A stretch of 63,745 nucleotides of DNA, counting the filler, from Folioceros fuciformis (lineage: Eukaryota), in NCBI GenBank assembly GCA_049999805.1. It is 5 parts of 4 records of this genome, joined end to end, with 100 filler letters (N's around TTAATTAATTAA, not from the genome) between each part and the next. Parts side by side here need not be neighbours in the genome. Positions count along the whole stretch, not along the records: positions 26,845 to 52,919 come from JBNGIO010006187.1; 4 more parts are not named here. One strand, written 5' to 3'. Made by a program: the position numbers and the translations under genes. Positions within the stretch are counted from its first letter, which is position 1; each line of letters begins with the position of its first letter. A model generated the notes under the pieces. It was not told where the DNA came from. It did no database searches and saw only the letters and a list, made by a program, of their open reading frames with translations. Shown one piece after another: positions 27,815-60,027 of this stretch.

Positions 27815-30800
27815 ATGGACACGGTGAGATGCTACTCGCGCCGCAAGCGCGCCAAGGCTGCCGTTCCCGAAGCACAAGCTGCGCTTCAGGTGCCTCAAGG
27901 CGGTGATGGCAGCCAGGTGCAGGTGCAACAGCAGCAACAGGTGCCGGAGCCAGAGGTAGGTCCAGAGTCACTGCCGCTGATGCGGCCTGACAACGTTGGG
28001 GAACCAGGGTCTGAGCCTCACCACCGACTTCAGCACGAGCAGCAGACTCAGGAGGAGGAGGAGGAGGAGGAGGAGCAGCTCGGGCAAGAGTGGGGCCGGG
28101 TTGAGGACGCGGACGATGAGCGAAAGACTGCACCTACGCTGGAATTGTCGCCTTCTGAGGACTCGGGCCTTGCCACGCCAGCGTACAAGCAGGGAGTTGA
28201 AGATGCGTTGCTTCAGCTTGCGGACCAGGAAACGCATCCGGAGCCTGCGCCTGAGCCGGAGCCCGGGCCCGGGCCCGGGCCCGGGCCGGAGCCGGAGTCG
28301 TTCCCGGACTCGAAACCAGAGCCTCTATCGGAAGAGGAACAGGAAGGAGAACCGCAATTGCACCTGGAACCCGCTCTGGAAGACCATGGACCTGACTCGC
28401 TCGCCCCAGTGGCGCAGCAGCACGAGTCTCATGAATATCAAGATGATATTCTCAACCGAGCGGACGCCATATGGCAAAAGATTGAGGTTCAAAAATTCCC
28501 ATCAGCCTGTTGTCATGCATAATCCCGCCTCGCTTGGCTTCGCTTTCAACACATTGTTTTTTCTAGCCTGTGTGTGTCACTGCCCTGCCCTGCGCCGGCC
28601 CCGCCTTGCCCATCCCAGTTGCGCTGATCTCTTTTCTTCTCTCGTGAATTTTGCAGACGTTGGAATCCACAAGAAAGCTTCCAGCTAGAGGAAGGGAGCC
28701 AGCTCGTTGCAAGACACACTGGGACTTCGTGCTGGAAGAGATGGCCTGGCTAGCCAAGGTCAGTGAAGCCCACAGCCCCGTCCCCCCTCTCCCCTGCCCC
28801 TCTTGCCCCGAACGCGTCTCACCTCGTCGTTTTGCAGCACTCTTGTGCTATAAATGTCTCACGCATTATTCTTACTGGATTTGCAAAGTGAATGACAAGT
28901 ATTGATCGTGACAGGCAACATCCATCCACGGATGGTGAATGGAATTTGGCAGGATTTTGATAGAGAGAGGAAGTGGAAGCTGACGCAAGCCAAGAAAGTG
29001 GCACTCAAGCTCAGCAAGATCAAAGTCGACCATGAAGCCAAGGGTGTTAAACGGCTGAAGGTGAGTACACATGCTGTCGCTCCCTTTGTCTTTGTCACCG
29101 TGAAGTTTTTCCTCCCAACCTCACTCGTAACGGAACGGCTACAGGAAGAACGGCAACGTGTGCGAAGGCTTGCCAGCAACATTGCTAAGGATGTTAAGAA
29201 GTTTTGGGTGAAAATCGACAAGCTTGTAAGACTTTCTTGGAAATCATGTCCCGCATTCGCACGTAAGTATGCCATCCCAATACCGTTTCTGACCACCCGT
29301 CTATAATGTTGTTTCATCGGACAGTTAGCGTATAAGCACCAGCTTGAGGCGGAAGAGATAAAGAAAAGGGCACGTGACAGACATCTCGACTTTCTCCTTG
29401 GCCAGACTGAAAGGTAGCCCTACTGCCAGTTTGACATGTGACCATACACTGCTAAACGTCGCCACGTTTCCTGTTTGCCTGTCAAATGCCTGTTTGTTCA
29501 GTGTCTATGTGCGAATGCCGGGCTGTTATGATGTGCATGGTGATCGTCTGTTCAGCTCAATTTCCCAGTTGTCGCCTCACGAGTCAGCTCCGTGGCAGGT
29601 ACTCGACTATGTTGGCAGAGACAATGTTGGCAGATCCATGCTTGATTTCTGCACCAAAGTCCCCCCTGCTTACGTCCTCCGCGCCATTTGCTCCCAATGC
29701 AGGCACGGAAGCTGGAAGTCTGCTGTCCCTTGGACATCAGCACGAGGATCATGTTTCTAGAGAACATTTAAGCCCAAGTTCAACTGCTAACGGTGCAGGT
29801 GGCAATGAATTGGAGCTAGAACAGCACAATAAGGTTGTTGGGAATGACTCATCTGCGACACCAAAGCTGGAGATCTTCCTTGGGGATACAGATCCAGGTG
29901 TGGAAAATGCTAATGGAGTTCTACCACATCCGTCTTTCAATAAAGATGTCTCAAGCGGGTGGCAGGTCAATGTGGGAATGGCTGATACGGAAAGCACTCT
30001 TCCCATGCCTGACAAGAACGCTAGCATCCCCTTGGGCGAGGGGGTGCCTAATAACTCTGAAAAACCTGGCTCTACACGTGGAGGATGGACGGGCCAGTCT
30101 CTAGGCAGTGGTTGCCCTAAGGAGCGTGAGCTTGTGCATCAGGTGCATCATGAGAAGGACGACCCTGTTGATGCAAGCACCTTGTCCATTGCCACGACGG
30201 CAGAAGTAGAAGAGGATGTAGTCAACGAATGTGGGGCAACAGTGGGGGCGTCCATAGCTGTTCCAAGTTCAAGTGGTCACGTGGATAACCTTCAACCTCC
30301 AGCCGAGTGCCTTCCGGGGACATTACGAACAAGGCCAAAGGGTCCAGACATGCATCTTGAAACCTTCAGTTTGTCTACTCGTGGCTCAGAGCACGCCAAT
30401 GAAGAAGATGCGGATGAAAGGTTAGGAAGGGAACTACTCGTTGATGCTGCAGCTGCTGCACAATCTGCTCAACCAACCGGGCATACCTTCTCTACAACGA
30501 AGGTTAGGACAGAGTCGCCCTTCCTCTTGAAGCATTGTCTACGGGAATACCAGCATATTGGATTGGATTGGTTGGTAACAATGTACGAAAAACGGTTGAA
30601 TGGCATTCTGGCAGATGAAATGGGTCTTGGGAAAACAATCATGACTATTTCTCTACTTGCGCTCTTAGCTTGTCAGAAGGGTATATGGGGACCTCATCTG
30701 ATTGTCGTCCCAACAAGTGTTATGCTTAACTGGGAAACAGAATTCATGAAGTGGTGTCCTGCATTTAAGGTGATGACATATTTTGGCAATGCAAGAGAGC

Positions 30801-33800
30801 GGAAGATCAAACGCCAAGGTTGGTCCAAACCCAACTCGTTTCATATCTGTATTACCACATATAGGCTGGTTATTCAGGATGCCAAAGCTTTTAAACGGAA
30901 GAAATGGAAGTACTTGATTCTGGATGAGGCACACCTCATAAAGAATTGGAGGTCTCAAAGATGGCAGACACTTTTAAACTTCAACTCTAAACGAAGAATT
31001 CTTTTGACTGGGACGCCGTTACAAAATGACCTGATGGAGCTTTGGTCCCTTATGCATTTTTTAATGCCGCATGTCTTCCAGTCCCATCAGCAATTCCGTG
31101 ACTGGTTCAGCAACCCCATCTCTGGAATGGTTGAGGGGCAGGAGCAGGTGAACAAAGAACTGGTGGAACGGTTGCACAATGTGCTCCGCCCCTTTTTGTT
31201 ACGCCGGTTGAAGCAGGATGTGGAGAAGCAGCTGCCGATGAAGTATGAGCATGTCGTTCTTTGCAGGCTCTCAAAGAGGCAGCGCAATTTGTATGAGGAC
31301 TTTATGGCCAGCTCTGAGACACAGGCTACACTGGCGAGTGGCAACTTTCTTGGCATGATAAATGTGCTGATGCAGCTGAGGAAGGTGTGCAATCATCCAG
31401 ATCTTTTTGAAGGCCGCCCTATCATATCCTCATGTGACATGCCTGGTCTTGACATGAATCTAAGTTCTGGCGTATGGTCGGTCTTAGAAGAGGTGAGTCC
31501 CATGTCAGCTGTGGACTTGAGTCATCTTAACCTCCTTATTGGAAATTTGGAGTTTGAAATGTCGTCATGGGCATGTGAAGAGATAAAAGATCTCGCAACT
31601 CCAACCTCCCTGATTGAAGAAATCTCAAGCACAGGGCAAGATAGTTGGGGTTCGCAACAGAAGAACCCTGTGTCTGACTCCGAATTTGGTGGGCTTATTG
31701 AAGAGATACAGGCTTCCCTTGCAGAACAGAAACTGCAGCAGCGGAGGGAAAGGGCCTTAGGCTTGGCAGTGATGAACACGATGCGCTGCAGTCTGGCGCC
31801 CATTTATGGGTTAAGCTTACGACAGACTCTGGTTGTGGAGCACCCTGTGTATGATGTGCACAAGATCAAAATGGAGGAGCGTAGATACTTCGATTTCTCG
31901 TCCAAGATTGCCGATATGGTACTTCTACCCATTGTCAGGATGGAATCCCTGGTAGAGCTCATCGAAGCCTTTGTTTTCGCCATTCCAGCTGCTCGAGCAT
32001 TACCACCTGTTGGCTGGTTCACCCAAAAGTCTCTGCCAGCTAATCCCCTCAGGTCCGCACTGCAAGAGACTAAGATTGCGAGAGAAGTGAGTGAACTGCT
32101 TGTTCCTCTGAGACCGGTGTTTGTTCGGAGGCAACTCTTCTTCCCTGACAGAAGGCTCTTGCAGTTTGATTGTGGGAAGCTTCAAGAACTAGCATCTTTG
32201 CTACGTCGTCTGAAATCAGAAGGACATAGGGCTCTGATTTTCACTCAGATGACAAAGATGCTTGATATTCTTGAGAGTTTCATTAATCTGTACGGGTATA
32301 CCTATATGAGGTTGGATGGCTCAACCAAACCTGAGCAGCGTCAAATACTTATGCAGCGTTTTAATACGAACAAGAAAATCTTTCTGTTCATTCTTTCCAC
32401 ACGGAGTGGTGGGGTTGGAATCAACTTAGTTGGTGCTGATACTGTTATTTTCTATGATAGTGATTGGAATCCTGCAATGGACCTACAAGCTCAAGATAGG
32501 TGCCATCGAATAGGTCAGACAAGGGAGGTTCACATCTACAGATTGGTTAGTGAGAGCACTGTGGAAGAGAACATCCTGAAGAAAGCAAACCAGAAAAGAC
32601 TGTTAGATGACTTAGTGATCCAAAGTGGCAGTTACAACACAGAGTTTTTCAAGAAGCTGGATCCTATGGAATTACTTTCTGGGCTGAGGAGTGGGAAATC
32701 TGTTGGGAGTGCAGAAGCTCCTGGGACAGCAGACGAAAACAAGGCTACAGCTTCCAAGCAGGAAGTTTCAAATGCAGATGTTGATGCTGCCTTGAAAAAT
32801 GCAGAGGACGAAGCTGACTACATGGCTATGAAGCGAGCTGAACAAGAACAGGATGCTGAGAATCAGGAGTTCACTGAAGAGGGATTCGCAGGGATTTTGG
32901 ATGATGAAGAATGTGCGGATGAGAATGGCGGGGTCAAGGCACTGGAGGAAATTTCCCCTGCACAACCTGTGAATGGTGACGCTAATGAACTTCCAGTTCT
33001 GGTCTCGAAGGAGAGTTCAAGCATGTTAACAACAACTGTTCCTGCTGAGCCTGAAGAAGACATAGATATGCTCGCAGATGTTAGGCAGATGGCTGCTGCT
33101 GCAGCAGCTGCTGGCAAAGACAGCATTTCCTTTGAGGACCAATTGCAGCCAGTCGAACGGTATGCTATGCGCCTTCTCGAATTCTGGGATGGTCTGCCTA
33201 GAAAGAACACGAGTGAAGCTCAAGCGGTGTATGAGGAGAAAGAGTGGGAACTTGACCAGCTTGAGAAGCTGAAGGAGGAACAAGAGGCAGAGATTGATGA
33301 GGACAATGAACCTTTGTTCTACGAAAGTATGTTAGCAGGAATAACCTATGTGAAAACTATGGTTGTGTAAGGCGAACTTTGCTTGGTGTCTAACGCAGTG
33401 TGGTCAGGTCAGCTCATGGCATTGGTGGTATTTGTGGCAGGCTGGGACACAACATTCGCGAATGAAGCGTATCGACAGCAGGTTGAAGTGTTAGTTCAGC
33501 AACAGGTTTGTGATTTGTTCCTAGTGTTCTGCCGGTGTTGTTTCCCTTCTCTGGTCTACATTGACACCCTGCTTTCAAACACGTCAAATTGTTTGTGGTG
33601 TGTGGTGATCGGTGTATAGGAGAATCAAAGACTGGAATGGGAAGCCATTAACGAGGAGATGTACGATGCTGACAGGTATGTAGTCTGACAGTGAATATTC
33701 TGTTCAAGAGGACTCTTTCCAATGTAGTGAGGCATGGCATGTTGAAGAGTCTAAGATATGGCTCCTGCTTGTTCGGTCAGAGCTGTAGAAGAAGCTGCAG

Positions 33801-36800
33801 CCACAGTTGTTGGTGCAGAGATTTTTAAGCTGAAGCGTAAGTCAAAAGATAAGTTGAAGCTGAAGAAGACCAAGTTCAAATCTCTGCGACATGATGGGTT
33901 TCCCAGACACAGGACAGAAGCCAATTTGAAGCCTACTGTATCCGATGAGTTTGTGAGCCCAAGCGCTGAAGATGCTAGAGCAGACATGTCACTGGTCCCA
34001 GCTCGCAGTCCATCTCAAAGGAAGCGAAAGGCTCCCAAACTACTGGAAGAAGAACTTCTTGTGGAAATGGAGCAAAGAAAGTTATGGAAGGAAAGTGCAA
34101 TTAGAGACCGTGGTGCTGGAAAAACGAAGTCCAAGAAAGGGCCAAGCAGATTAAGCAATGAGAGGGCCCTAGAGTTTGGAGATGAAGAATGGCCAGGATC
34201 GATTCGTCCTGAATCGATTGTAATGCCATCCCCAGCGAATGCCTCGACAAAAACGCCTTTGAAATCTAAACTGAGTGGCATGAATCTGAAAAAGGGACCA
34301 CTCGTTATGTTAGAGAGGGAAAAGAAAAAGGATGCCACAAAGTCTTTGGATCAGGTCCCTCAGGCTGATCCCTGGGTGCCTGCTGAAGATGCTGTGTTGT
34401 GTGCAGTTCTCCATGAATATGGAGGCAATTGGCAGCTGGCCAGTGATGCGTTGGCTGGGCTTCCTGATGGTGGTGTGTATAGGGGTCGATATCGGCACCC
34501 TATCCACTGTCGGGAAAGATTCAGACAGCTCCTTGCACAAAATGCTTCCGCAGCAAATGGTGATCCTACAGCTTCCAAAATTGCTGCTGCAAATGCTCCG
34601 TTGAAGGTCACAGAGGTGAAACACCTGGGTCTCTGCTATGGTTGCTGTGCTATCCTGTGTCTGGATTAGATCTCTTTTGGTGGATGGTTTTACTAATGTA
34701 TACTTCATTTGCTTCATTTGCTGCAGGAGCACACCAAGAGGCTGTTGGAAGTTGTACAGCAGCTTCCAGATGACGAGTTTTTGTTGCAGCGCCACTTCAG
34801 TGCCGTGCTAGAGGTCGTTCAGAAGTCATCCACACGCTTAGAAGCACTGGGAGGAAGCAGTGGGATCATTTCCCCTCATTCTGGAACATTTATATCGTTG
34901 AAGAGCTTGAAGTGGCTGCCTTCAGCCCTTTCTGGCCTCAGCGACGCAGAACTACTTATAAAAAACAGTGGTCTCTCTCAAGCTTCCCACCTGTCGGTGT
35001 CAGCATTGATTGAGCAGGCATCAGAGGTTAGAAGTGGTGGTATTGACCAAGCTCTGGATGTAAAGACAAACAGCTCTCAACTAGATTACTTCACTCAAGA
35101 GCCCATGGCAGATGATGAGATGACGTTCATTGCTAGCCTCTTAGTTGGCCCTAAGGCTGCTGCCAAGGGTTCTGTATCTCCATCAGGATCAGGTCACGTT
35201 CAAAGTACAGGGCAGCGGGTTTCTATCGAGAAGTTGTTTGATCTGAGAACCATGCCAGATGAATCAAGCTTTTCGAATGGACTGAGACCTTTGCTGACAG
35301 ACATTGTCGACCAGCGGTTCAGGTATTACTTAGCACTTGTGAATCGTAGGGAATGTTTCATGTGGCCCTGGTCCCTTCAAGGATTCTATCTGCAGTTTAA
35401 TTTAGGCCTGCCTACCGATGCTAAGACTACTTGCTTTGGCATAAGAGCTCATGGGGTGTCCTGTGGTTGCAGGAATGCCATGAAGATATTTGGTGACGGA
35501 GACGCTCTGAAGTGGGTCTCTGCTGCAGGGACCGTGACAGGTGTTGCTGGCGCAGAACTCCCGACAAGAAGAATGGCGGGTAAGAAGCGTCCATCTCGGG
35601 ATGCCAGTAAGCCCCCAAAACCAAAACAGGCACGGGTGCAGGGCGAGCCAAAAAAGGGATCCAACAAGACGCTTTGGCAACCTGATATTGTTGAGAGTGG
35701 GTCGATGCCCTGCCAAGCATCAGGAGGCTTTGAAAAAACGCAGCAGCTAGCGGCAGAGGCGGCTGAACCAGAACAGGTAGTTCCTTGCCCTCTACCTGTG
35801 CCGGGGGTCCAAGATGTTCAGGACAAGCATCAGGTTGGGTGATCCACATATTTCAAAAGTCCCAGGAAGTGGCCTGTCTAGAACTTTTCTCGGGATGGTG
35901 GTGATAATCTTAAATTTTACTTGGGCCATTCTATTATTATCTTGGGTCCTGTAGCTAGTGCAAGGAGGGTTGCTGCAGGGTGGATGTTGTAACGTAAGTC
36001 AGCTGCTAAGAGTGACTGCCAAAAGCTTAAACTGGGATTTTGTGGGTGCGGTGCCAAATGATCTAATAAGTTCTTTTTGGAGTGGTGTTGAAAAGGGTAA
36101 GCTTGGTTTGCATTAGCAAAGGCAAATTCTAGATGCAACATGGTGTTCGTCTTGCCTGATGTAATTTGTTTGGTTGTAAAGGGAAGCACACAACGACTTC
36201 GAGCAACTGAACTTGCTGGCGATGGTGGTGATGTCCTCAGCAGTAGGTCAAACTCATCAGCAATTCGAAAGGCCAATGACTACAGTGGGCGTTTTGGTGG
36301 ATCTCCTGGAAGGGGGAATGCATGTTTGCCTGGAGATGAAATCGCAGCTGGGCCTCGGAGTAGCATACAAGTGAAGGTATTGGAGGGTATGTCTCCTCTT
36401 CACATTGGAGTGAGGACTCAAGGAGTCCCTGGGCGAAGCAGTACGGTGCCCACCGGAGGTGAACCGAAGATGGCGGGTCTTCATTCCAGGTCAAGCATTT
36501 CAAGACTACTCGCAAATTCCAGAGGCTTGGTTGTGTTGCCTCCATCCTTGGAAGCCAAGGTGACCTCCCCAAGGTGGTCTCAGATCCCATCGAGTAGGGA
36601 AGAACATGCAACGACAGGAGCTTCTAGGCTGCTCCCGACTAATTTGTGGGCTAGCAGTGATCCAGATAGTAGGTTAGACAATTCTCGAAGATGTGTAGGG
36701 AGACAAACTAGAAGACCACCAGAGCATGGCAATGCTCCAGAAGCACCTGAAGGCAGTTTCCAGAGGCACTGCCAAGATGGTGAGCATATTCGCTATCAGG

Positions 36801-37471
36801 TACAAGCAGAACAAGGTCAGTGTAAACCGGCATCCAATACTGGCCAGGTTCAGCCTGAAGTTTTTCTGGGTAACTATTATTCGAGATCTTCCAGGTCTCA
36901 CCCTCAGGCTGCTGAAAATCCTGTCTGGACGGGTGTTGGGGATCACGCTGTGAGGGAGTCAACTGCGTGGGTGGAGGATCGACCTGCAACTCATCCTAGG
37001 AATGACTTGTTCTCAGCGAGTAGTCCTGTCGTGTGTGAGCATTCGAGAGGATTGCTCGTAGAGTATCAACTATCAGCACTGGAGGCAGCAAGAAGGCTTC
37101 AAGGGTTAGAGGCCTCCGTTGGGTTCCCAGGTCGAGGTTTTTGTGGCCTGTCCTCAGATTTCCCTGGGTTTGGTTCAAATTCTCAGTCGGTGAAGGGTTT
37201 AGGTCATGTTTTGCCCTCGAGTTCTTTCTCGGAGCCGTATGTCAGTATTCCCTCTCCGTCTTATCCCAGTTCAAGCAACTTGAGGGGTTCTGCTCATCAA
37301 TCAACATATCAGCTTTCAACTCATCAGCTTTCCCGCCCTAGCTTTCCTGTCAAAGTCAGGTCCCAATGGGACGTCTCTCCCGGCCGAGCACGTTCCGTAG
37401 CTTCTGACGCCCCTCTTAGCAGTAGCTTTCAGCAGGACTCTGCGGGGACTTCAAATTCTCCGTCCTTGTGA
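27815..37471 (+). CDS. PIE1: PIE1 / SWR1-type SNF2 chromatin-remodelling ATPase, about 12 exons
   Basis: HSA domain [25 protein letters not shown]; SNF2 motifs NGILADEMGLGKT, LILDEAH, LLTGTP; helicase C QAQDRCHRIGQ; SANT-like WVPAEDAVLCAVLHEYGGNWQL. Exons: 27815-28486, 28657-28758, 28953-29060, 29145-29225, 29325-29413, 29599-33326, 33441-33505, 33620-33675, 33781-34615, 34727-35322, 35473-35833, 36182-37471. The start and last exon are less certain. Confidence 0.93.
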
Positions 37472-41533: not shown

Positions 41534-42433
41534 TTATTTTTTGGCATCCCCTTTCTTATCGTCTCCTTTCTTTTCGTCCTTCTTCTCCTCCTTCTTGTCG
41601 TCCTTCTTCTCCTCCTTCTTGTCGTCCTTCTTCTCCTCCTTCTTCGGTGGTGGCGGATCGGGTATCAACTCAGCACTCTTCTTAACCCTCTTGATGAGAT
41701 TGAGAACGTCGTCGGGCTTCAAAATTGCTCCAACCACGGTGACCTTGTGCCCGGATTTGTCAATGGTAATGCTCTCAATTCCTGCGAGGATTTTCAAGGC
41801 TGTGTGAACTCTGTAACAAGATAGAGAAATGTGACCCGGAGGCGATCACAGGAAAAAAGCACCGTGCTAAACTCGATCGGATGGGATCGGAGTATAGGGG
41901 GTAGGATGCCTACCAGGAGTCGTAGAAAGAGTTTTGCTGAGATCCTTGAAACATTTCTGACAGCAGATTCGCACTTTGACGTTGATTGGCTGCATCGCAT
42001 GGCATCGCACAAGTTGAGCTTCCGAGAGGGGCAAAAAACAGAGTGAAGGCCAGGGCGGAAACATGAAATTTTGAGAGCAATTCACCTTAGGTTTGGGTGG
42101 ATCGGCCTTCTTCTCCTCCTTCTTTTCCTCCTTCTTCTCTTCCTTCTTCTCCTCCTTCTTCTCCTCCTTCTTCTCCTCCTTCTTCTCCTCCTTCTTCTCT
42201 TCCTTCTTCTCCTCCTTCTTCTCCTCTTTCTTCTCCTCCTTCTTTTGAGGGGGAGGAGGAGGGGGTACACACTGATTACCACAGTTGTTAAAGGGGCCGT
42301 AGTATCGATCCCAGTTCCTCACAAAGAAATCCTGCAATTGGCACCAAATGCGCATTGTCAACCCTACCGACACCGCTAGCGAGCGCAGAAAATTGTAGGC
42401 CAGAGAGCAGCACACCTCACTGTACCCAACCAT
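41534..42433 (-). CDS. Heavy-metal-associated (HMA) domain plant protein with KKEE/KKDD repeats, no CaaX box, 4 exons
   Basis: Exons 42433-42416 (a shorter first exon is possible), 42331-42086, 41989-41914, 41781-41534. HMA sequence INVKVRICCQKC...GIESITID...KVTVVG...VLNLIKRVKKSAEL. Confidence 0.88.
42108..42246 (-). repeat. 12-bp coding tandem repeat (KKEE), about 11 copies
   Basis: AAGAAGGAGGAG-type units. A related KKEE/KKDD array lies at about 41540-41645. Confidence 0.95.
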
Positions 42434-43416
42434 GCTGGCTGGAGCTGTAAAGCCTTGGCTCGAGCCGGCGGCGGCGGCGGCGGCGGATCTGATTCAACAA
42501 CTGATGCGGAAGCAACGAGAAGAGAGGAGGCAGGCAAGTCCGCGTTCACAAAGCCATAGCGCCGATGCCTGTCCACGGACGCTTAGAGGCGGCGCACCAT
42601 CTGAAAAAAGAGGTGGTCGTGCTCGCCGTCGAAATCAGAGATCCCGTAGACAATGCGGGGCAGGGGAACGTTCTGGAAAGCTGGTGTTGCGAAAGGCTCG
42701 AGGCTCCAGGTGAGAGGAACCAGCTCGAGGTACCTAACTAGCAAGAGGATGGGCACTCAGCTGTAGACCACTACGACAACTGTAGCTGCATTGCAGCGGC
42801 CAGGGAGGGGAGGAGGGAGAGTAGTAAGGTGGTGTGAAGTTTCCGCAAATCTGCGCCGGAAGCAAAGACTGACTGAAGGGTTTCACGACCGGCCCCACCT
42901 GCGTCCGCCATCTCCCAAACTCAGCAGCGCTACGCCGTTGGTAGTGCATCGCAGCTCACCCCATGTCTCGTCTCGTCTCGTCCCTTCCAGCCTAGGAAGC
43001 TCATGAGCCCGCGCCGACACCGACCGATACACCAACATCACCTGCTGCGACGGGGACCGGTCACCGACAGTCAGTGCCTTCAACAACTGACCATGGTATG
43101 CTGCATACCTGGACATCGAAATGCAGCTCTATTATACATTCATACTGGGAGGATGTTGATGTTGATATACGCATTGCCCCGCCACGTCGGCTGGGGTTGG
43201 TTCACGTCTTTGGTGTGCACAGTATAGGTACAGTATTTTGGAAGACGGTTACCGCGCTAGCCGCACACACTGTTTTGTCACACTAGCCACCAGCAAAATA
43301 AAAACACACGATGTTTTTGCTCCTTTATATGCACCAGCTCAATTTCCTTCCCTTCTCACTCTTCCCTTTGTTCCTCTCCCCTTTGCTTGTACCAAATGTA
43401 GCCACCGCCGTAGACA

Positions 43417-44293
43417 ATGGCCACTGAGGTGGTGGTGCTGTCACCGGAGGCAAGCTCTCCACCTCGCCCGGCGCCTCACTCTAGTCCTACACAGGGTGTG
43501 CAACAAGGCCACAACCACAACGTGGAGGATAAAGTGCATCAAGGTCTTCACCAGGACGGGGTTGAGACCGCGGTGGATGGAACAATTCATGGACAAAAAC
43601 AACGAAAACCGCGGCTCAAACCAGATCATCCCTCCTATGCTTGCATGATTCGCGAGGCAATTCTGGGACTCAAGCAAAAGGCAGGCAGTAGCCAACATGC
43701 AATCACCAAGAACGTCGGTGATGTGTACAAGGGCAAACTGTCCAAAACTTTTAGCAAACACCTAGCACAGCAACTCAAGCGAATGGTTTCTGCCAACAAG
43801 ATCACCAAGAACAAAGGGAAATTTAGGTTGACGCTGAGTTATCGGAAATACAATCTTAGCAAAGAAGAGAAGATGAAAGAGGATCAAGCAGCTGCCGCTG
43901 CTCGAGCTCATGTTATCAGGAGACAACCAGTGGTCACCAACAGCAAGAAACGGAAGAGAAGCTATACCAAGGTTGTGACGAGAAGAGTTCGCAAGAAGAA
44001 GCTAACGAGGAGGTGGAGAAAGGGCAGGGGTCACAAGAAAAAAANNNNNNNNNNNNNNNNNNNNNNNNNNNNNNNNNNNNNNNNNNNNNNNNNNNNNNNN
44101 NNNNNNNNNNNNNNNNNNNNNNNNNNNNNNNNNNNNNNNNNNNNGATCTAGGAAGCGGAGAAGGATAGTGTATCGCAGAAAAGTTGCACCTAAGAAGAGG
44201 AAAACTAGGGCAAACAGCAAGAAACGTGTTGAGCGTTGGAAACAAAGTTCAGCCAAAAGACGAAAAGTCACCAGAACTCGAATCCCAGAAAAG
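43417..44293 (+). CDS. Linker histone H1-like protein (GH1 domain) with an Arg-rich protamine-like tail; first exon spans an assembly gap
   Basis: HPSYACMIREAILGLKQKAGSSQHAITK...LAQQLKRMVSANKITKNKGKFRL is a GH1 winged-helix signature. It is followed by KKRKRSYTKVVTRRVRKKKLTRRWRK and, after the gap, SRKRRRIVYRRKV...KRRKVTRTRIPEK then GT. Confidence 0.85.
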
Positions 44294-44713
44294 GTTATAT
44301 TTTATATTTTATATTTTATATAGGTTTTTTTAATTTAAATACCTAGAAACATATATATCCTTTCATATCTTGTTGTGAATGTCTACATATCATCTTATAT
44401 AGTCACTAGTATATATATATATATATATAAAATCAAGAATGGAGTTGTTGAACAATCAAGGTGATTCAGGTAACCCCTTTTCTCATGTATTACAAGTCAA
44501 GATGAAAGTGAGAGAGATTCAATATCATTCTTTTCGGAGTAGAGAGTTGCAATTTTGGAAGGAATTTCAAGAGTAGATTTATAACTAGATAGATATCATA
44601 GTCTTGGGATTCAATAATATCTTCAATTACAATAATTTATTCTTTCATCTTTAAAAAATATATTCTTTAATTATATTTCCTTATATATGTTATATACTAG
44701 GATTGTGTGAGGA

Positions 44714-46865
44714 TTGAAATGGGTAATAACATCACCAAAGCAATTCTTATCAATTGCTATGGCTGAGATCTTCCTGAGTCTACTTACTATGGGATTGGGA
44801 GTTGGCCGTCGATTTGTGAAACATCCAAGTGGAGAGCCTTTGAATCATATTGTAGCAGACAAATCTACTACTGACATTGAAGATGAAAAGGAGAAGGAAA
44901 AGGAAAAAGAAGAGTCTTCTCTTGCTCCTTCCAATGGATTGAGTACATGTGTAGATGAAAGTAAGCCCATTGATGAAGGGCCTACTAAAACGTCAAATGA
45001 AACAAGTAATCAAAATGAATCGAGTTCAGAAGGAGGCAGAATGGGATTATCTATTAGTGTGCAACCAGACAATCAAAGTTTGAGTTGTTGTAAGGTGAAA
45101 GAATCTATAGATGATACGGATCAAGATAAACCCAAACAAATTGGTGGCATCATGATTGCAGTAGCTATTGAAACCACTAGCTCACAACAATTTCAGTCCA
45201 AGCCCTTGTTTCGTAACTTGAATGTTGGAGCTACAAATTCTACTGAATTGAATGAAGTAGAGTGTATACAATGTTATTCTTGTGTCAAACCAGCCACTGA
45301 TGAGGATATTAGAGGTGATAACATGGAATCCTTCAAGGATGTCTTCAATCCTATGAAGAGTCCATCCTTGGTACTAGAAGATGATGGACTTAATGAATGT
45401 GAGGAATGCTTGGAAGATGTGACTGTCCGTAATGAACAAGGTGAAAATGACATGTGTCAATGTAGGTCACAAGAGGCACAAGATCAATGTAGATCATCAA
45501 GAGAAGGTGAAGGTGTGGGTGATCAAGGATGTAGCAATGACTCCCCCATCCTCTTGGAAACTTGTCCTCCACAAGTCAAGGTTCATGCTATCGAAACCAC
45601 TAATGACATCCTTCAAGCTCCACAAAGTAGTGGGTTTGAATCACCTTGCCATGAATTTGAATGTTATAGTAAAGAGTGTGAGTTGCCTGGTGATCGTCGT
45701 GGATCATCAAATGGGTTTGACGAAGCCTTAGAATGCCCTGAACCATGTACATTGATAAGAGACACTTTGATGGGGGACACATTTGGAGCACAAAAAGGAA
45801 ACATCCATAGTTATATCCAAGATGATCAACCCACAGTGATGTATTCCAAGCAAATTTTATATCCTTTCCAAACCATGGTAGCTAACTGTGCTAAGTAAAC
45901 CGAATACATTAATATCTTAAAGATTGGCTTTGTTTTAATCTGTGAATGATCAAAATCTTCATTTACAGTAACAACAACAACAACAACAACAAGGTTGTTC
46001 AACTTAAACTTGGTTTCAAATTGGGTTTTGCAGGGGCAAGCCACAACTTTAGGTGATGGAGTTGGCTCAGACCATGGTTCTCATGGAGGAAGTCATGCAA
46101 GCCTTCGTAGTCATGGATTAACACATGGATCACACGGAGGGTCACATACTGGAAGCCATGCTTCTCATGGTCTTCATGGAAGTAGAGGAATTGTTCAGAA
46201 TCATGAGTTGGAAACTCATGAACATAACGTCCAAGAGAGACATGCACATGTATCTCTTCATGAAGCAGAAACTCTTGTGAAGGGCACTACTTCTCAAGGT
46301 GTTTCTACAGATGATCTTATTGAAACGCAAATGAGGAGGAGGAAACGGCCTCCTCTGCGCAAACCAGGTAGGTACTACTTGCATTCTGTGTGTCAACTTA
46401 AACATCCATGATACATAAATGACACTAATAGTAGCAATAATAATAATAGTAACAATAACAATAGCTCCATTCAATATTACCATTGAACAGGTAGAAAAGT
46501 ACAAGTGCGGGGAAAAAGAATGTACAGTGCGAGACGAAAGGTGAAAAGAAAAGTAACGAGCTATAAAAGAAAGCAAGGCAAACGGAGTCGTACTATACCC
46601 AAGCCTAAGAGTCGTAAGCGGAAGACTAGTACAAGTCGGACATCTTACACTTACAGAAAGCGCATAAAAAATGTAAGATACTTTTAAGTAGTCATGCTAA
46701 AGCACTTTGCATGGTGTGTTAGTTTATGTTAGCATTCATAGAATACTAAGCTCTATTGTCATGTAGGAGGAATCAAAACAAAGGTTTAAGAGAGGTCTCA
46801 TACAACTGGGTGAACCCACAGCATCAGAAGTTGCATTAAGTGAAGAGGCTTCTAGTGCAAGTTAG
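44714..46865 (+). CDS. Probable downstream exons of the H1-like gene, or an adjacent gene: acidic/Cys-rich, His-Gly-Ser-rich and a second Arg/Lys-rich segment
   Basis: A 394-codon open frame, then phase-compatible GT-AG exons: about 44741-45877, 46034-46367, 46491-46672, 46767-46865. The junction to 44293 is not resolved. Confidence 0.5.
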
Positions 46866-49800
46866 ATGAATTATGAATTACATTATATGAATTGTGCTCA
46901 TATGTCATATAAATATTGTGATTAATATAATCATATATTTATGATAATCCTATGATTTTGTTTGTAGAGAGTTTGAAGGCATAGGTTATCCAATGCTTAA
47001 AGGAACAAGCTATGGGAAAGTTCATCACAATTTTGAGTTAATTTTTGAAGTATTTCAAAACTTTCAAATTATGATTATTTTATTAAATAAATATATATTA
47101 AAAACCTTTTATAATAAAAGAAACCTAAAAACTTTGATTGAGATGAATCATGTATGAAAGAAAATTAAAAATAGATTGATAAGCTTAAATAAATGCAGCT
47201 GGTTATGTATAGTCAATGTTTTAGACTAAGAATGTCCAGGTATTTTTAGTACAGATTAAAATAATAATAATAATAATAACAGTATATAATTACATTATAA
47301 ACATATTTAAAAGTTTGTAACAACTAATTGTTACTGAAAATTGGCTTACCATCATCCATAGATGTAGATGTGCTTGTTTCTTGAAGGGCAAAATCAGCCA
47401 TGGCCAGGGAAGACGCCCACCGCAAGGGTGGCATGGCATATAAGGTGCTATAAGTAAGTTCAAGCGGGAACGCATCAGCAACACTCAATCTGATTACTGA
47501 TCCATCCCAAGGTGCGATTGAAGCCCCATCGATGTCGCATGTAGAGCTTGAGAGTCTTTCTTGAAAGAGGACGACATAGGATTCTATTCGATCGATGCAC
47601 CTGATCAAAACCAGAATCATCCATTGATGGAAGTGAGCGTTTGCAAGATTTAAAATAGAGACATTCAAAGAAATACATGGGGTAGAAATCATGCAAATAA
47701 CCCACCAGGACCCTTCTCCTTTTTACGCATCCATCCGAGCATGCAAGAAAGAAAAAACAGACCAAGGTCGATCTGAGGCCTTCCCAGTCAATCAAAGCAG
47801 GAGCTGCTTCCTTCCTAAGGAGTCTGGTCATATACTGCTCGGCCTGAATATCTCTATGCTTCCAGATAATCCTGAGGGCTTTCACAGGATTGTGGAACCC
47901 TCCCAAGTCTATCCATGGATTGCCCATACATCATCTCTTCATTCAATGGCAAATTCCGCTTCACAGGCAGAAGCGATGACCCCTATGGTTTATTTCTGAT
48001 GTTTGTCGAGACAGGACCGAGCATCAGATCGACCACTTTCCTGGTTTCCACTTTCATCCTGCACCAAGTGCGGAAAGTAAATAAGGAAAGCTGGTAAACT
48101 AAATACTTCCAACGGTGTGCCGGCTACACGCCAGGAAGAGGCGCTGAAGGGAACCAATTAGGAACAGTAATCGAGGTGCCGTCGGCTTCAGACAGTAAGT
48201 ATTGTAAGCTGGAATTGGGCAATCACAAAAGCAGACACTCAAGCGGGGGCCTGAACACCGGCTCTCTGCTATTTTCTGGAGTTGCATTTCTAGGTCATTT
48301 CCCCTCCTCTTCAAGATGGAGAAGGCAGAGTCTTCAAAATGGTCAGTGGCTAATCTTCAAATCTTATCTCGGTGTCTCTGTTCACTTCTACTGCAGAGCC
48401 AGCTGCACACTTCCAACCAATCCCGACATGAACGAAAACAGGAGGGGAGAAACTTTCTTGCTCTTGCCACTACCCGGGAATCTGCCATCTCCTTCATAAC
48501 GCAAGGCCCTCTAGGATATCTAATTTGCTGAAACAAATGTCCTTGTAAAATACCATTGGCACAGGCCTCGCATCCTCCGTTCTGTAGTGGTGAATTGAAC
48601 GTGAGACAGTTCCTAAGAAAATGGCTGTCCTACTCTAGGGTCTAAGCTACACTGACACTGGAACATAAAGGACAGTTTCTGTTGCACAATGGGAACAATC
48701 GAAGAGTTCACTGCATAGGCACGGCTTTTACCGTGTCCTTGTATAGAGGCCAGCATATTGTACGACCGGCAAATGACAAACGTAATTTGAGCTGACCACC
48801 ACTGACTTTAGCTACCCTGAACACCGGCTACCTAGTGGCTGTGCAGTGGGGTAACTGAGGGGTAGCTAAACTGTTAGCAACCAGAAATGTGTGACGATAA
48901 TGGAGAGGCGGCTCCCAATCCACATCCCTGTTTCAGTGACGAGGCAGGGTTCATACGTGCAAATCAATGAAACCCACCAGTTCCTAGGCGCAAATAGGTG
49001 GCTGTGGCCAATGCTAGAGCGCAACGCTGTGGAACTTTTACCCACTAAGAGCACTAGTGGAGGGCAGTCCAGCGGTACATGTCAGCATTTGTAGAAAATG
49101 AGGAGGGAAGAAGGGACAAGTTGCTTGCCTGATTGCAGCTTCACACACCCGCATGCAGATCGATGGATTCAAGCGCACATATTGAGCATTGAGTTTTCAT
49201 TCCGTACTCGCAGTGCAAAGCTCGGCCCTCCATGTTCCTGTCGACTTTTGCCGAAATGCCTCAACTTGAATCTATGATCATAGAAATTGATCATTCAAGT
49301 TCTATGAGTCTGAGAGACATAGCACAACTACATTGATGGCCAAGCTTACCGTGGGGAAAAAAAATGTGCACATCTGCTGAAAGAAAATCTGGATTCATGA
49401 AGGCAAAGTGCAAACATGACGACGACACTTACTTGAATCACTTCTCCTGGTGCCAGCGCAAAACGAGTCGCACGATTTCTTCATCAGCCGCTTCCTGCAC
49501 CCCTGCGTCCAAGTGCAGGCACCTGAAGCTCCTTCATGCCGGGAGCCGCCAGCTAGCTACTCGGGAAGAACAGCAGGAGCGAAACAGGGAAAAATCTGGT
49601 TCAGAAGGCGTAGCGAAAGGTGGGGCACACTCCGCGATGAAATCCCGCATCCCGATCACATTCCAGTGTCCGGCTTCCCCTGCTCCGACTCCCTGCATCA
49701 ACTAACCAGCCTGCCCTGCTGTCCTAGCAACAAGACAGGTAGGTGTGTTTGTGTGCAGAACGAGACGCCGCGTGCCGTAAGGGCGGGGCCAGAATGCCAG

Positions 49801-53931: not shown

Positions 53932-56667
53932 TTAAACTGATAGTGGCTTCATCCTAGGTAAGGCTTTCGTAAGCAAATCCGTAGCATTAGCATCAGTCAG
54001 CACATACTCAAGCTTGACTTGTTTTGTCTCAACAGCATGTCGAATGAAGTGATGATGGACTTCAACATGCTTAGTTCTGGCATGAAATACTGGATTTTGT
54101 GCCAAAGCTAACGCTGATTGATTGTCGCAATATATAGTTGTTGGTTCTCGCTGTGGTTGTCCAAGATCTGATAACAATCTTCTCAGCCAAATTGCCTCTT
54201 TAGACGCCTGTGTCAAGGCAGAGTATTCTGCCTCTGTTGACGAGAGAGACACAGTCGTTTGTTTCTTTGAGGACCATGTAACTGCTCCACCAGCTAGAAG
54301 AAAAGCATATGCTGAAACGGACTTCCTCGTATCAGGATCTGCTGCCCAGTCAGCATCGCAGTATCCTATCAGCATAAGCTCCTCTCCTTCAAAGGCTTGT
54401 TTGGAATAATGTATACCATGATCACTCGTGCCCTTCAAATATCGAAGAATCCGCTTAACAGCTGACCAGTGTACCTTTCCTGGATTCTTGAGGTGCTGAG
54501 AGACCATGCTCACTGGGAGAGCTACATCAGGCCTACTATTGTTTGAGTAGTATATGAGTGAACCTACTGCTTGGGCATAGGGAACTGCCTCCATCTCCTG
54601 CTTATCAGCATCAGTCGCTGGAGACTGTGAGCTGGACAACTTGCAACCAGTTTCAAGAGGTGTAATTGCTACCTTAGCTTCCTCGAGCTTATACTTGAAT
54701 AACATATCCAGAATATACTTCTGCTGATGTATTACCAATGTGCCACTTGCAGAGTCACGAGACAGCTGAGTGCCGAGGCAGTAGGACAACTCCCCGACAT
54801 CTACCATTTCAAAGCGACCAGACAGCAGACCTTTAACTCTGGTAATCCCCTCAAGATCAGTGCCTAGGAGTATGCAATCATCTACGTACAAAGCTAGTAT
54901 AACAAAACTTGTTTTGTCTTGCAGGAGATAAACATTCGAATCTGCTGAGCTTTTAAGAAAACCAAGTCCTAGCAGGAACTCATCTATGACTTCATACCAA
55001 GCACGGGGACTCTGCTTCAAGCCGTAGATAGTTTTGAGTAACTGACAGACCCAGTCCTCTTTCCCTTCTACCTCGTACCCCTCAGGCTGTTGCATAAAGA
55101 TATCTTCCTCTAATTTCCCATGGAGAAAGGCGGTCTTAACATCCATCTGGTGGATGAAAAGGCCAAAAAACGCAGACATGGAGACGAGGACACGAAGAGA
55201 CTGAGACTTAACTACAGGGCTAAAAGTATCATGGTAGTCTAAGCCAGGGACTTGAGAGAACCCACGAGCTACTAACCTGGCCTTGTATCTGGAGATAGAG
55301 CCATCCGCCTTATATTTCAACTTGAACACCCACTTCGAGGTGACAATTTTCCTCCCCTGAGGCGGAGGAACTATCTTCCAGGTTTGATTGTGGATCAATG
55401 AGTCATATTCAGACTGGATTGCTGCTTTCCAAAGCTTGGCCTCTGGCCCACTAACAGCCTCTTGATAACTTTGTGGTTCACAACCAGGTTCGAAAGCAAG
55501 GTTAAGGAAATCAACCACCACTCCATCGGCAGCTGAACCAGGAGGTCGAGGGACTTTCCGAAAGTCTTCACTGCTGTAAGGTGCCTCCTTCCAATTCTCA
55601 CGTGTTCTGTGCACTCGAGTAGACCGCCGAAGAGGGGCAGGCTGGGGAATGGGCATCACATATTCGACTGGATCATCTTCGAACCGCTCAGGATGTTGAA
55701 TAACAGGCTGTGGAATAACTGGGGCTGGAGGTTCATCATCGTCTGACTGTACAAGTACAGGAAGCAAGACATCATCGAGATCAGCAGGTGGATCATCTAG
55801 ATGTGTATCATCAGACTGGTCAGGGGGATCACCAAGGGCTTGTGGGGGAGGCACCACAGGTAAAGGGTCAGGAGTTGTAAAGGAAGGATCTGAGTCAGGA
55901 AACGTGGCAGATTCAAAAGCACTAACATCATCCTCTGGCTCGACAGGTTGGTTATCAACTTCTACAACATCAGGATCTGTGAAATCATCAAAGGAATGAG
56001 CTGGCGGCTTAAGAACAGAACGCTCATCGAAAACAACTGTCCTGGCATGTGAAACCTTTTGAGTAACAGGGTCGAACAACTTATAACCATGTATACCCGC
56101 TGTATAGCCAATGAAGATGTGACGTTTCGACTTATAGTCAAACTTGTGGCGAAGCTGATCAGGCACATGAGCATAGGCGGTACTCCCAAACACTCGGAGA
56201 TGTGCCAGATCTGGTTTACACCCAGTCCACACTTCAAAGGGTGTACAGCTGCGAAGAGATGAAACAGCAGAACGATTTTGTAGGTATGTCGCAACTTGCA
56301 CTGCTTCCGCCCAGAATTTAACTGACAGTCTTCCTTGATACAAAAGAGAGCGAGCAGCATCCTGGATGGTCCTGTGACGACGCTCCGCACGTCCATTCAT
56401 ATCAGAGTGATACGGAATGGTGAGTTGTCTAGTTATCCTCCTCTCCTGACAATATTCCTGGAAGGCTAGGGATAAGTACTCCTTGCCATTGTCACTTCTG
56501 ATACAATTCAGCTGATGTCCAGTCTGCCTTTCTGCGTATGCAAGGTACCGCTTGAAGCTGGAGAATACTTCACTCTTGTGGCGTAAAAGCTCTGTCACTG
56601 TGAAGTGTGACTTATCGTCCTCGAACACAACAAAATATTTAGCGCCTCCCCAGGAGGGTACCGACAT
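53932..56667 (-). mobile_element. Ty1/copia element D pol (integrase-RT-RNase H), open for 911 codons, 5'-truncated
   Basis: RSDNGKEY, NGRAERRHRT, QMDVKTAFLHG, YGLKQSPRAW, LYVDD, YCDADW, KHVEV. There is a frameshift in the last few codons. Confidence 0.95.
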
Positions 56668-56670
56668 TGG

Positions 56671-56770
56671 NNNNNNNNNNNNNNNNNNNNNNNNNNNNNN
56701 NNNNNNNNNNNNNNTTAATTAATTAANNNNNNNNNNNNNNNNNNNNNNNNNNNNNNNNNNNNNNNNNNNN
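56671..56770. other. Artificial contig spacer
   Basis: N44-TTAATTAATTAA-N44. Confidence 0.95.
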
Positions 56771-56951
56771 TCAGGTCTTAGAGTTAGGATGTGTACTATT
56801 TATAGTTTGTGTTTATAGATATAGAAATATATATGTATGTTTTGTTCACTACTTAACTGCTACGAAACGCAAACAAACCTAGCTAAAGAAACTTGATTAT
56901 CCTGCAAAGAAACTCGTCAGCCCTAAGCAGGAATCGCCGCCCCTTCAGACT

Positions 56952-59900
56952 TCAATCTTCACGCTCCGTGCTTGCTCTCCGGTCCGCCGCTGTGCTCCAC
57001 CTCAAGGGATTGCCTGCTGATCTCAGCCCCATGGCCGCCGCATGCTCATAATGCTTGATGCGCCCCAAGGCCTTCGTCAGTATGTCTGCGGTCATTGCTT
57101 CTGTGGGGCAGTAGGAGATCCTTACCAGGCCTTGAGCTACAGATTCGCGGATGTAGTGATGCTCAATTCCAATATGCTTGGTCCTGGCGTGGAAGCGAGG
57201 ATTCATCGTTAGCGCGATTGCGCTCTGGTTGTCACACAGCAAATCTATTGGCAGTTCCTGCGGTATGCCCAGCTCTCTCAATGCTCCCACTGACCAGGTG
57301 ATTTCTTTGCACGCCTCCGTGAGGCTCTTGTATTCCGCTTCCGTAGAGGACAGGGCAATGGTTGACTGCTTCTTGCTGCTCCATGAGATTGCCCCGCCTG
57401 CTAGGATTGTCACATAACTACTAATGCTCTTGCGGCTGTCTGGGTCTCCACCCCAGTCAGCGTCGCTGTAGACTGTAAGACACAGTGCATTCTTTGCCTT
57501 CGAGCTGTACAAGATCCCCCACTCAGCTGTCCCAGCAATATACCTATAGACCCTTGTCATCAGGTCTTGATGTGCTCGATTGGGATTTGAGACAAACCGT
57601 GAGGTCAGTCCAGAGGTGAACGCCAGATCAGGCCTGCTGCCTATCATCAAATGCATTATGCTTCTGTTCTCCGATGAATACAACTCGACATAGTGTGCGT
57701 CCTCCTCAGGTATCTCTCCCTGCTGCTGAGTGTACTTTACATTCTGCTCTACTGGAGTAGCTACAGGCTTGCAGCCAGTCATGCCATATCTGGCCAAAAT
57801 CTGCTGAGCATACTTGTGCTGGTGCAGGAAAATGGTGCCCGCACCCCGATTTCGAAGTAGCTGCATGCCCAAGCAGTAGGAGAGAGCACCAGCCTCTGTA
57901 GTCTTAAATGCTCTTCTCAGGTTTTCCTTCAAGTCAGATATCATGCGTAGAGAGTTACTGAGGATGATGATATCATCCACATAAATGGCGAGTGCCAGGA
58001 AGCTTGTCCCTTCTCTTTTCACATAGACGTTACTGTCAGCGTGCAAGCTTCCATATCCGAGCTCTGTCAGGTACGTGTGGATTCTTTCGTACCATGCTCG
58101 GGGGCTTTGCTTAAGCCCATACAAATTCTTTCTAAGTTTGCATACGGGACGAGACAAATTCGTAGGCACTGATACTCCTGCAGGCACTTGCATATATATC
58201 TCCTCCTGCAGGTTCCCATAAAGAAATGCTGTGGTGACATCGAGCTGCTCCAGCTCGAGATTGTTCACCGCGGCAAGTGCCACAAACATTCGCAAGGTAG
58301 TGAGCTTAACAACAGGGCTGAACGTGTCATCATAGTCCACCCCAGGTATTTGTGAATACCCTTTTGCTACTAACCTTGCTTTATACCTCGCGATGCTTCC
58401 ATCAGCTTTTAGTTTAATCTTGAACACCCACTTACTGCCCACTGGTTTCCTGTCTGCAGGGAGACTAGCTATAGTCCAGGTTTGGTTCTCATACAGAGAA
58501 GCTAGTTCAGACTGGATGGCGTTATGCCAATGTTCAGCATTAGGGCAGCTGAGTGCTGCTTCATACGTAGGAGGTTCGTACAGAACGGTGTTGGCAGCTA
58601 GGCAGTAGGACAGGTTTGATTTAGGATGCCGAAAATCTTCGGGTGCAAACATATCTGGTGGTCGGCGTGTTCTCTGAGACTGCCGAGGCTTCCTTCTGTG
58701 CTGCTCAACTGGAGAAGCTGACGGAATCACTGTCTCGGGCTCTTCAAAGGTCAAAGACCCAGCTGAAGGTGTGTCTTGCAGATTCCGGCTGCTAATTATG
58801 CGTCCAGGTGTGCGCATAGGTGTCTGCATAATGGGTGACTGTGGTGCTGGAGGTCTGACTGGTGGCGCCTGTGGTTGTGCTGCAAGTACTGCTGGCGCAG
58901 CAGGAAGAGGAACGCGTATATCGCCAACCATCATCTCCTCCTCCTCTTCTGCTGAGCCATCATCCGAGCTGGAATAGTCAGGAGGAGTTGCTCCCACTGG
59001 CTGTTGGGACTCCACTCCTTCGACGAACACCACGTCCCGGGAATGGGTGACGACCTTCGTTCGCCGATTGAGCACCTTATACCCTTTGATGCCGTCAGTG
59101 AACCCGATAAAAATACAATGGTTGGACTTGGGTTCGAACTTTCTACGTAGGTCCTTGTGGATTTGGGTGTACACCGACGAGCCAAAGACACGGAGGTGAG
59201 CAAGGTTGGGCTTCTTGCCTGTCCACATTTCATAAGGTGTTTTTCCCTTCACAGATTTGTGGGCTACCCGGTTTTGAATGTAGGTAGCATACCCTACTGC
59301 CTCTGCCCAGTAAGCTTTTGGCAGATTTGCGTACTGGAGCATGCTGGAAGCCGAAGTCTCCAAGGACTGATTCTTGTGTTCAGAAACCCCATTCTGTTGT
59401 GGGGTATAGGCGTTCGTCAGCTGCCTAGCGATGCCATGCTGGGTGCAAAAAGCATCGAATTCCTTGGATGTGTACTCACCGCCGTTGTCGGACCTCAGGA
59501 TTTTCAGATGATGACCAGTTTGGGTCTCAGCCCAAGCCTTGTACTCCACAAAGCATGCGAAAGTTTCTGACTTCTGCTTCAGGAAATATACTACACAAAA
59601 ACAGGTGTAGTCATCGATGAAAGTGGTAAAATACTCCTTCCCTCCAAGAGATACTGGTAGCTTTCCGCATACATCACTGTGTACGAGCCCTAAGATTTCT
59701 GTGGCTCTTGTTGCTTGTCCAACAGGGAAGGATGTGCGCTTGTGTTTGCCCAACACACAAGCCTCACACACTCCAAAATTCTGGAGGTTGTCAAGTGTGA
59801 TACCGTCCACCAGCTTATCTTTGTACATGCTCACAAGCTTCTGAAAATTAATATGACCCAGGCGAAGGTGCCAAAGGTACGTGAGAGATGGCTTTGCATA

Positions 59901-59987
59901 ATGCGAGTGATCAGAAGCGGAGAGGGCTTGCTCTTCCGTCACATCTAAATGATATAGGTCGTCCTGCTGCAGGTGTCCAGTGGCCAA
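56952..59987 (-). mobile_element. Ty1/copia element E pol (gag-pre-integrase, integrase, RT, RNase H), 1011 aa open, 5'-truncated
   Basis: LWHLRLGH, CEAC, VHSDVCG, RSDNGGEY, QLDVTTAFLYG, IYVDD, YSDADW, ADILTK. A purine tract and LTR-like sequence with TATAAATA follow directly (56771-56950). Confidence 0.95.
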
Positions 59988-60027
59988 GAGGGTGCCATCC
60001 TTGTTCTCGACGACACATCTACCATCT

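Follow-up and report, generated by a model that had tools for sequence, protein, structure and literature searches.

Histone H1 is regarded as the source from which animals and plants each evolved protamines independently, and in Mytilus the protamine-like (PL) proteins PL-II* and PL-IV come from one precursor. To our knowledge, the molecular evidence for an H1-to-protamine origin on the plant side comes essentially from Marchantia; D'Ippolito et al. reportedly found in 2019 (J Biol Chem 294:16364) that male germ-specific H1 histones of Marchantia polymorpha are cleaved into protamines. Here, we describe a plant H1 gene with an arginine-rich tail from Folioceros fuciformis (assembly GCA_049999805.1), located in a stretch of 63,745 nt, filler included, which was analysed as a whole and is referred to below as the window. 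Downstream of the gene, on the same strand, is a non-H1 frame that carries another arginine- and lysine-rich block. A second, very divergent Arg-rich H1 would be one more case from which to judge how frequently and how rapidly H1 tails become protamines, and the downstream unit, if expressed in sperm, would be a candidate for a non-H1 route to a plant protamine with a charge-neutralising pro-region built in.

Several described systems invite comparison. In Marchantia, the arginine-rich protein MpPRM is called protamine-like and placed under the control of DUO1 (PMC6290024), and the Marchantia protamines are said to derive from sperm-specific H1 histones (bioRxiv 10.1101/2025.03.22.644562). In animal PL proteins, a winged-helix domain of H1 type occurs together with basic regions enriched in Arg, and precursors undergo cleavage (PMC11607694, PMC13251019). 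The window H1 shares the winged helix and the Arg-enriched regions with the animal PL proteins derived from H1/H5 (Spisula PL, Mytilus PL-II/III/IV, and those of tunicates and spiders); as these come from another kingdom, the likeness would reflect convergent or parallel evolution starting from H1. The sperm nuclear basic proteins of the brown alga Sargassum horneri include sperm-specific H1 variants, with possible post-translational cleavage (PMC10858212), but these are H-type, intact H1 proteins of a stramenopile, whereas the window gene is a plant H1.

An H1 gene with an arginine-rich tail

The H1 frame opens with an ATG at 43417 (Table 1), and its globular domain (GH1) was recognised by both sequence and structure. 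It matches Pfam PF00538 at 50.3 bits (cut-off 22.4; E 2.8e-13) over profile positions 1-73 of 74, and PDB sequences of H1.0 (6hq1, E 3e-4) and H5 (E 2.6e-3). An AlphaFold2 (AF2) model, built from an alignment with only 2 sequences, places helices at residues 74-83, 93-103 and 112-125 and strands at 129-132 and 135-138, which is a winged helix with its beta-hairpin; the mean predicted local distance difference test (pLDDT) score of 10-residue blocks is 76-90 across residues 71-140. With this model, ranks 1-11 in Foldseek are all H1.0, H5 or H1 chains, nine of them with a template modelling score (TM, target) of 0.66-0.69 at 2.6-4.1 Å. The N-terminus is disordered in the model (pLDDT <50 at residues 4-62), so that the protein has the tripartite layout of H1, with a disordered N-terminus, a globular domain and a long basic tail (45% K+R).

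A metagenome search returned five loci. Four of these (L001-L004) are canonical plant-type H1 genes, which serve here only as contrast, while the fifth (L005) was set aside as a chance pattern match of 28 residues without continuation. The GH1 of the window gene is 45-48% identical to those of the four canonical genes, placing it among the plant linker histones, and shares with them the motifs GSSQHAITK and HP.Y..MI as well as the tripartite layout. Plant H1 genes usually carry an intron inside GH1; consistent with that intron, the reading frame breaks inside GH1 in L002-L004 (after ...HPTYAE in L004), but no such break, and no intron inside GH1, is found in the window gene. Three of the canonical genes lie at 5306-5791 (L002), 5278-5763 (L003) and 2402-3165 (L004) of their contigs.

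The tail, in contrast, is not that of a canonical plant H1. Its ~135 residues have fractions of R 0.23, K 0.22, A 0.07 and P 0.03, compared with R 0.00-0.01, K 0.32-0.34, A 0.28-0.32 and P 0.13-0.14 in L001 and L004, and the tails of L002 and L003 read like these two. Arginine makes up 0.51 of R+K, and the S/TPxK motif was not found in the tail. The window gene therefore lacks the tail of somatic-type plant H1s, which is rich in Lys, Ala and Pro (0-1% Arg, versus 23% here), carries S/TPxK and has little Arg. Instead, it has the architecture of a protamine-like H1, with GH1 followed by an arginine-rich C-terminal region. This is what the original prediction had proposed in describing a divergent GH1 followed by Arg-rich tracts in place of the usual K/A/P tail; its count of 14 R and 11 K among the 49 residues after the assembly gap is exact (44147-44293).

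The transcript-side data consist of one public run, X1, whose RNA status is a guess and is not on record. Three X1 contigs (834, 312 and 239 nt) match the stretch with 0 differences; cover is absent at 44276-46103, at 46539-46950 and over most of 44213-44293, and these holes carry no evidential weight. The 834-nt contig corresponds to 43330-44044 plus 44145-44212 with 51 letters in between, and so bridges, in frame, the gap that interrupts the tail. At 51 nt, or 17 codons, the gap leaves the frames on either side in agreement (44147 starts a codon).

Of 200 word-sharing candidates drawn from 5.8 billion library proteins, P0001 was the only relative to score E <= 0.001. It matches the window H1 at E 6e-27, with 53% identity over 122 residues. 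Its tail is also rich in both basic residues (R 0.18, K 0.27; 0.40 of R+K is arginine), shares RRWRKG and has the same length within two residues. The P0001 tail ends in ...RRKVTKNRVHEK, which aligns with the window end ...RRKVTRTRIPEK, the two having ...RRKVT..R..EK in common. A single detectable relative is in line with rapid evolution of the gene and sparse sampling of its lineage, and is no proof of a sperm role. Neither tblastn nor blastn found a paralogue in the window.

Upstream of the H1 ATG, there is one match to the DUO1 consensus RRCSGTT, as given in PMC6290024. The consensus is not enriched in the window, with 25 matches against 32.8 expected. The 239-nt X1 contig overlaps 43300-43345 and continues leftwards past the aligned stretch, so the DUO1-type site may lie inside a transcript. 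This contig shares only 16 nt with the H1 contig starting at 43330; it may represent a longer 5' untranslated region (UTR), a 5' UTR intron boundary (43335-43400 is pyrimidine-rich) or another transcript.

The frame downstream of the H1 exon

Between 44759 and 46865, four exons join into a frame of 577 codons with one terminal stop. GC is 40-46% in the exons, compared with 30-33% in the intervening introns. The first exon is the long acidic, Cys-rich segment noted in the original prediction: 44741-45877 (379 codons) has an isoelectric point (pI) of 4.36, with 28 D, 41 E and 18 C. It lies in a stop-free run of 395 codons (44711-45898) in DNA of 40% GC, a length reached by 0 of 5000 shuffles of 44294-46033 (mean 67.6, maximum 157), and shows coding periodicity, with GC of 0.50, 0.40 and 0.30 at the first, second and third codon positions (GC1, GC2 and GC3). 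At 44759, the ATG is preceded by G at -3 and followed by GCT as the next codon.

This acidic exon has no recognisable relatives. Among 1425 word-sharing candidates, none reached E <= 0.001 with 44759-45877; no usable match was found in the ESM Atlas, and no Pfam family matched, with nothing below E 0.07. A HMMER scan of 1.84 billion representatives gave a sole match, P0002 (E 4.7e-4), a repetitive T/G/S-rich protein that aligns via four repeat copies at 26-30% identity; because the match runs through repeat copies, we rejected it as a homologue and regard it as a composition/repeat match. An AF2 single-sequence model has a pLDDT of 33.5, that is, no confident fold. A transposon origin was also considered and rejected, as there are no notable flanking direct or inverted repeats and no transposable element domain. 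Within the exon, a 16-nt direct repeat (94% identity; 45164-45179 and 45587-45602) encodes AIETT twice, which hints at an old internal duplication.

The start of the downstream frame (44759-44830) is hydrophobic, reading MAEIFLSLLTMGLGVG and then RR. By analogy with the protamine-type proteins of Chara, which are described as being made on the rough endoplasmic reticulum (PMC3557377), this may be a signal-peptide-like start.

The next two exons carry the His-Gly-Ser repeat and the second basic block, and both read as originally quoted. The former has 16 H in 111 residues (46034-46366), with GC1 0.65, GC2 0.50 and GC3 0.23, and the 60 residues of the latter (46493-46672) include 14 K and 14 R. 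No in-frame ATG occurs in 46034-46367 ahead of the Met of the basic block, so an upstream coding exon is needed. The junction between the two exons (LRKPG/RKVQV, 46367/46491) was borne out by the 312-nt X1 contig, which corresponds to 46104-46364 plus 46488-46538 and skips 123 nt bounded by GT..AG (for the 46364-to-46488 joint, cut +3 at a depth of 3.8, with 51 letters on the shorter side). RNA is the best explanation for this intron-less joint.

In total, the second basic block comprises 72 residues with R 0.26 and K 0.22, a composition near that of the H1 tail. It is not a recognisable duplicate of that tail, as the two align with a score of 43, less than the mean of 47.5 for shuffles (z -0.67). 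An H1-type and a non-H1 protamine-like block are adjacent in the window, and both are found in run X1. Rfam found nothing in 42000-48000.

Two adjacent units, or one gene

How the H1 exon relates to the downstream exons can be read in several ways. Our preferred reading, to which we give an even chance, is that the locus holds two adjacent plus-strand units, a protamine-like H1 variant beside a separate orphan with the second protamine-like block. Similarly, we give equal weight for and against the H1 frame ending before 44767, with the downstream unit translated from its own ATG. Unit 1 would extend from 43417 to ~44323, or include a short terminal exon before 44767, and unit 2 would be a lineage-restricted orphan of 577 codons from ATG 44759 to TAG 46865, comprising in order a hydrophobic start, ~350 acidic Cys-rich residues, the His-Gly-Ser tract, the R/K block and a short acidic end. 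The spacer at 44294-44758 would then consist of the H1 3' UTR and the downstream unit's promoter; otherwise it is intron 1. We infer separate translation of the two units from the context of the second ATG, a jump in GC, a break in GC3, a poor acceptor at 44741 and a better one at 44701 that leads to a stop. GC climbs from 0.17 to 0.40 at ~44700, just upstream of ATG 44759, and such a jump followed by an ATG in good context is what a transcription start would show. For the H1 exon, GC3 is 0.50-0.55 (1a) and 0.41 (1b), compared with 0.23-0.38 in exon 2, 0.18-0.20 in exon 3 and 0.22 in exon 5; the downstream values are below those of an SNF2 open reading frame (ORF) in the window (0.39-0.64) and of all but two retrotransposon ORF windows (0.33-0.60). 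Several observations count against two units. The conserved end of the H1 frame lacks a stop, with ...EK followed by GTTATA, and the end of P0001 is alike. Read on unspliced, the window frame adds 9 codons (VIFYILYFI) before a stop at 44321-44323, and P0001 adds 53, neither run-on being conserved; the missing stop and an AT-rich, unconserved run-on are expected if a splice donor lies there and a further coding exon comes next. Indeed, the ...EK/GT end resembles a conserved phase-0 donor, with which the acceptors at 44741 and 46034 are both in frame. In addition, the distance from the unspliced H1 stop to ATG 44759 is only ~435 nt, leaving little room for both a 3' UTR and a promoter.

Such a donor could be used in two ways, and we judged the splice signals by consensus, without an organism-specific model. 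Direct splicing of the H1 exon to 46034, giving an H1-His-Gly-Ser-basic fusion of ~480 residues from one gene, seems to us improbable. The acidic exon would then act either as a cassette that is skipped or as an alternative first exon under a separate promoter, and two proteins would share a protamine-like C-terminus. In keeping with this, the H1 exon ends without a stop at an ...EK/GT end common to P0001; its phase-0 donor keeps the frame at 46034, where the acceptor (TTTTGCAG/G, that is, TGCAG/G; 57% pyrimidine and 43% T in the preceding 30 nt) is near consensus; the Cys-rich exon, 1137 nt long, is symmetrical (0-0); exon 3 lacks its own start codon ahead of the basic block; the two basic blocks are nearly equal in composition (R 0.23/K 0.22 vs R 0.26/K 0.22); and contigs of one run fall on both the H1 exon and exons 3-4. 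However, no X1 contig joins 44293 to 46034, the intron would measure 1740 nt compared with 94-156 nt for the others, GC3 drops from 0.54 in exon 1 to 0.23 in exon 3, and the donor (AAG/GTTATA) is the weakest of the four. The broader proposal of one transcription unit with alternative products, in which either the H1 domain or an acidic Cys-rich pro-domain is spliced onto a common C-terminal cassette, is in our view also unlikely, and we would be similarly doubtful that such a cassette consists of the putative metal-binding His-Gly-Ser tract plus the protamine-like R/K block. In the literature searched, a protamine module exchanged between an H1 carrier and a self-neutralising acidic one was not found described for any sperm nuclear basic protein. 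Least probable, with a small chance at best, is the single polyprotein of ~860 residues put forward in the original prediction, which would be made via a 44293-to-44741 junction and cleaved into protamine-like peptides with the acidic region built in. All of its junctions are in frame (44293-to-44741 is phase 0 to phase 0) and the H1 exon ends without a stop; furthermore, cleaved H1-derived sperm proteins are reported in Marchantia, and cleavage of protamine precursors is described as widespread (PMC11607694, PMC13251019). Yet the 44293/44741 junction lacks credible splice signals: the acceptor at 44741 (AAG/C; 33% pyrimidine and 20% T over 30 nt) is the poorest of the three in-frame candidates singled out (44701, 44741 and 46034), and the strong acceptor 40 nt upstream at 44701 (TAG/G; 63% pyrimidine, 53% T) runs the H1 frame to a stop at 44764-44766. 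A good-context ATG follows 18 nt past 44741, in a hydrophobic stretch of a kind not expected midway through a nuclear basic protein, and the GC3 break falls between the H1 and downstream parts. None of 1666 candidates was a related protein longer than 366 residues, evidence that we rate as weak. Altogether, of the protamine-precursor reading, the divergent H1 with its Arg-rich tail is supported but the single polyprotein is unproven, as no contig links exon 1 to any downstream exon, and those exons bring an ATG of their own as well as a codon composition unlike that of the H1 exon. The remaining probability goes to other structures, such as an intron of 109 nt leading to 44403.

Returning to two separate units, we propose, by analogy with the GH1 domain and Arg-rich tail of plant protamine-like proteins, that unit 1 encodes a PL-type sperm nuclear basic protein. 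Its GH1 winged helix would dock on nucleosomal or linker DNA and so target chromatin, and its tail, with R about equal to K and almost no Ala or Pro, would neutralise DNA phosphate more tightly than a Lys/Ala/Pro tail. The protein would thereby condense spermatid chromatin, possibly once the tail is cleaved as reported for Marchantia, and unit 2 may supply a second protamine-like block out of an acidic precursor. It is possible, though rather less probable than an even chance, that the H1 variant is not a sperm protein but a linker histone that evolves fast and is somatic, stress-induced or otherwise specialised, or else a GH1 chromatin protein, with another role for its Arg-rich tail. The lone upstream DUO1-type motif is no more than chance would give, and a male-specific cycad H1 is described as neither Arg-rich nor protamine-like (bioRxiv 10.1101/2025.03.22.644562), showing that a single pattern does not have to hold for all H1 variants. 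Two further points weigh against the sperm role: X1, the sole run, is coded and has no tissue label, and the likeness to the Marchantia H1 protamine precursors and MpPRM, with which the window H1 has in common a plant lineage and a linker-histone globular domain leading into a C-terminal region rich in arginine, is one of description only. On the other side, the tail, with R about equal to K and without Ala/Pro or S/TPxK, is unlike those of the four canonical plant H1s and matches the characteristics given for protamine-type proteins (PMC6290024, bioRxiv 10.1101/2025.03.22.644562), while the finding of one relative among the candidates would fit rapid evolution of a reproductive protein.

Feature coordinates and surroundings

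Table 1. Features of the H1 locus and the downstream frame, in window coordinates
Feature	Position	Strand	Remarks
DUO1-type motif GACGGTT	43244..43250	+	single RRCSGTT match, 167-173 nt upstream of ATG; weak lead
H1 exon, first part	43417..44044	+	disordered N-terminus, GH1, start of R/K tail; 209 codons to gap; open frame
GH1 winged-helix domain	43627..43830	+	residues 71-138; Pfam PF00538, PDB, AF2, Foldseek
Assembly gap, 100 N	44045..44144	.	real length 51 nt = 17 codons, from X1 contig
End of R/K-rich H1 tail	44145..44293	+	49 codons, 14 R, 11 K, pI 12; ends ...RRKVTRTRIPEK
AT-rich spacer	44294..44758	+	GC 0.17-0.31 per 100 nt; starts GTTATA; (TTATATT)n repeat, TATA-like runs
Acidic Cys-rich orphan exon	44759..45877	+	373 codons from ATG; CxxC, CxC, Cx4C pairs
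Inferred intron	45878..46033	+	GTAGCT...TTTTGCAG, 156 nt, GC 0.31; from consensus and frame only
His-Gly-Ser-rich exon	46034..46367	+	ends in start of second basic block (MRRRKRPPLRKP)
Intron removed in X1 contig	46368..46490	+	123 nt, GT..AG
Second basic block exon	46491..46672	+	60 full codons, 14 K + 14 R, pI 12
Inferred intron	46673..46766	+	GTAAGA...TCATGTAG, 94 nt; from consensus and frame only
Inferred last coding exon	46767..46865	+	32 codons, mildly acidic; TAG at 46863-46865

The window as a whole is eukaryotic and plant-like, with short AT-rich GT..AG introns, Ty1-copia and Ty3-gypsy ORFs and a large SNF2 helicase ORF. The latter is an uninterrupted ORF of 1304 codons at 29456-33370 (+) with SNF2-related (E 4.5e-90) and Helicase_C domains. 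It is followed on the same strand by ORFs at 33755-34669, 34697-35842 and 36101-37471, which match no Pfam family and may be later exons of a large SNF2 chromatin-remodeller gene. A 12-mer tandem repeat (CCTTCTTCTCCT; 11.6 copies, 93% matches) at 42106-42244 lies inside a minus-strand ORF (41867-42493) that has only sub-threshold Pfam matches; the repeat would encode a Glu/Lys/Gly-rich repeat. Long terminal repeat retrotransposon polyprotein ORFs occupy 7717-11659 (+), 25440-26438 (-), 53932-60071 (-) and 60239-63745 (-). They include ORFs of Ty1-copia type (gag, integrase, RVT_2) and one Ty3-gypsy ORF (RVT_1, RNase H, integrase), which extends past the window end.

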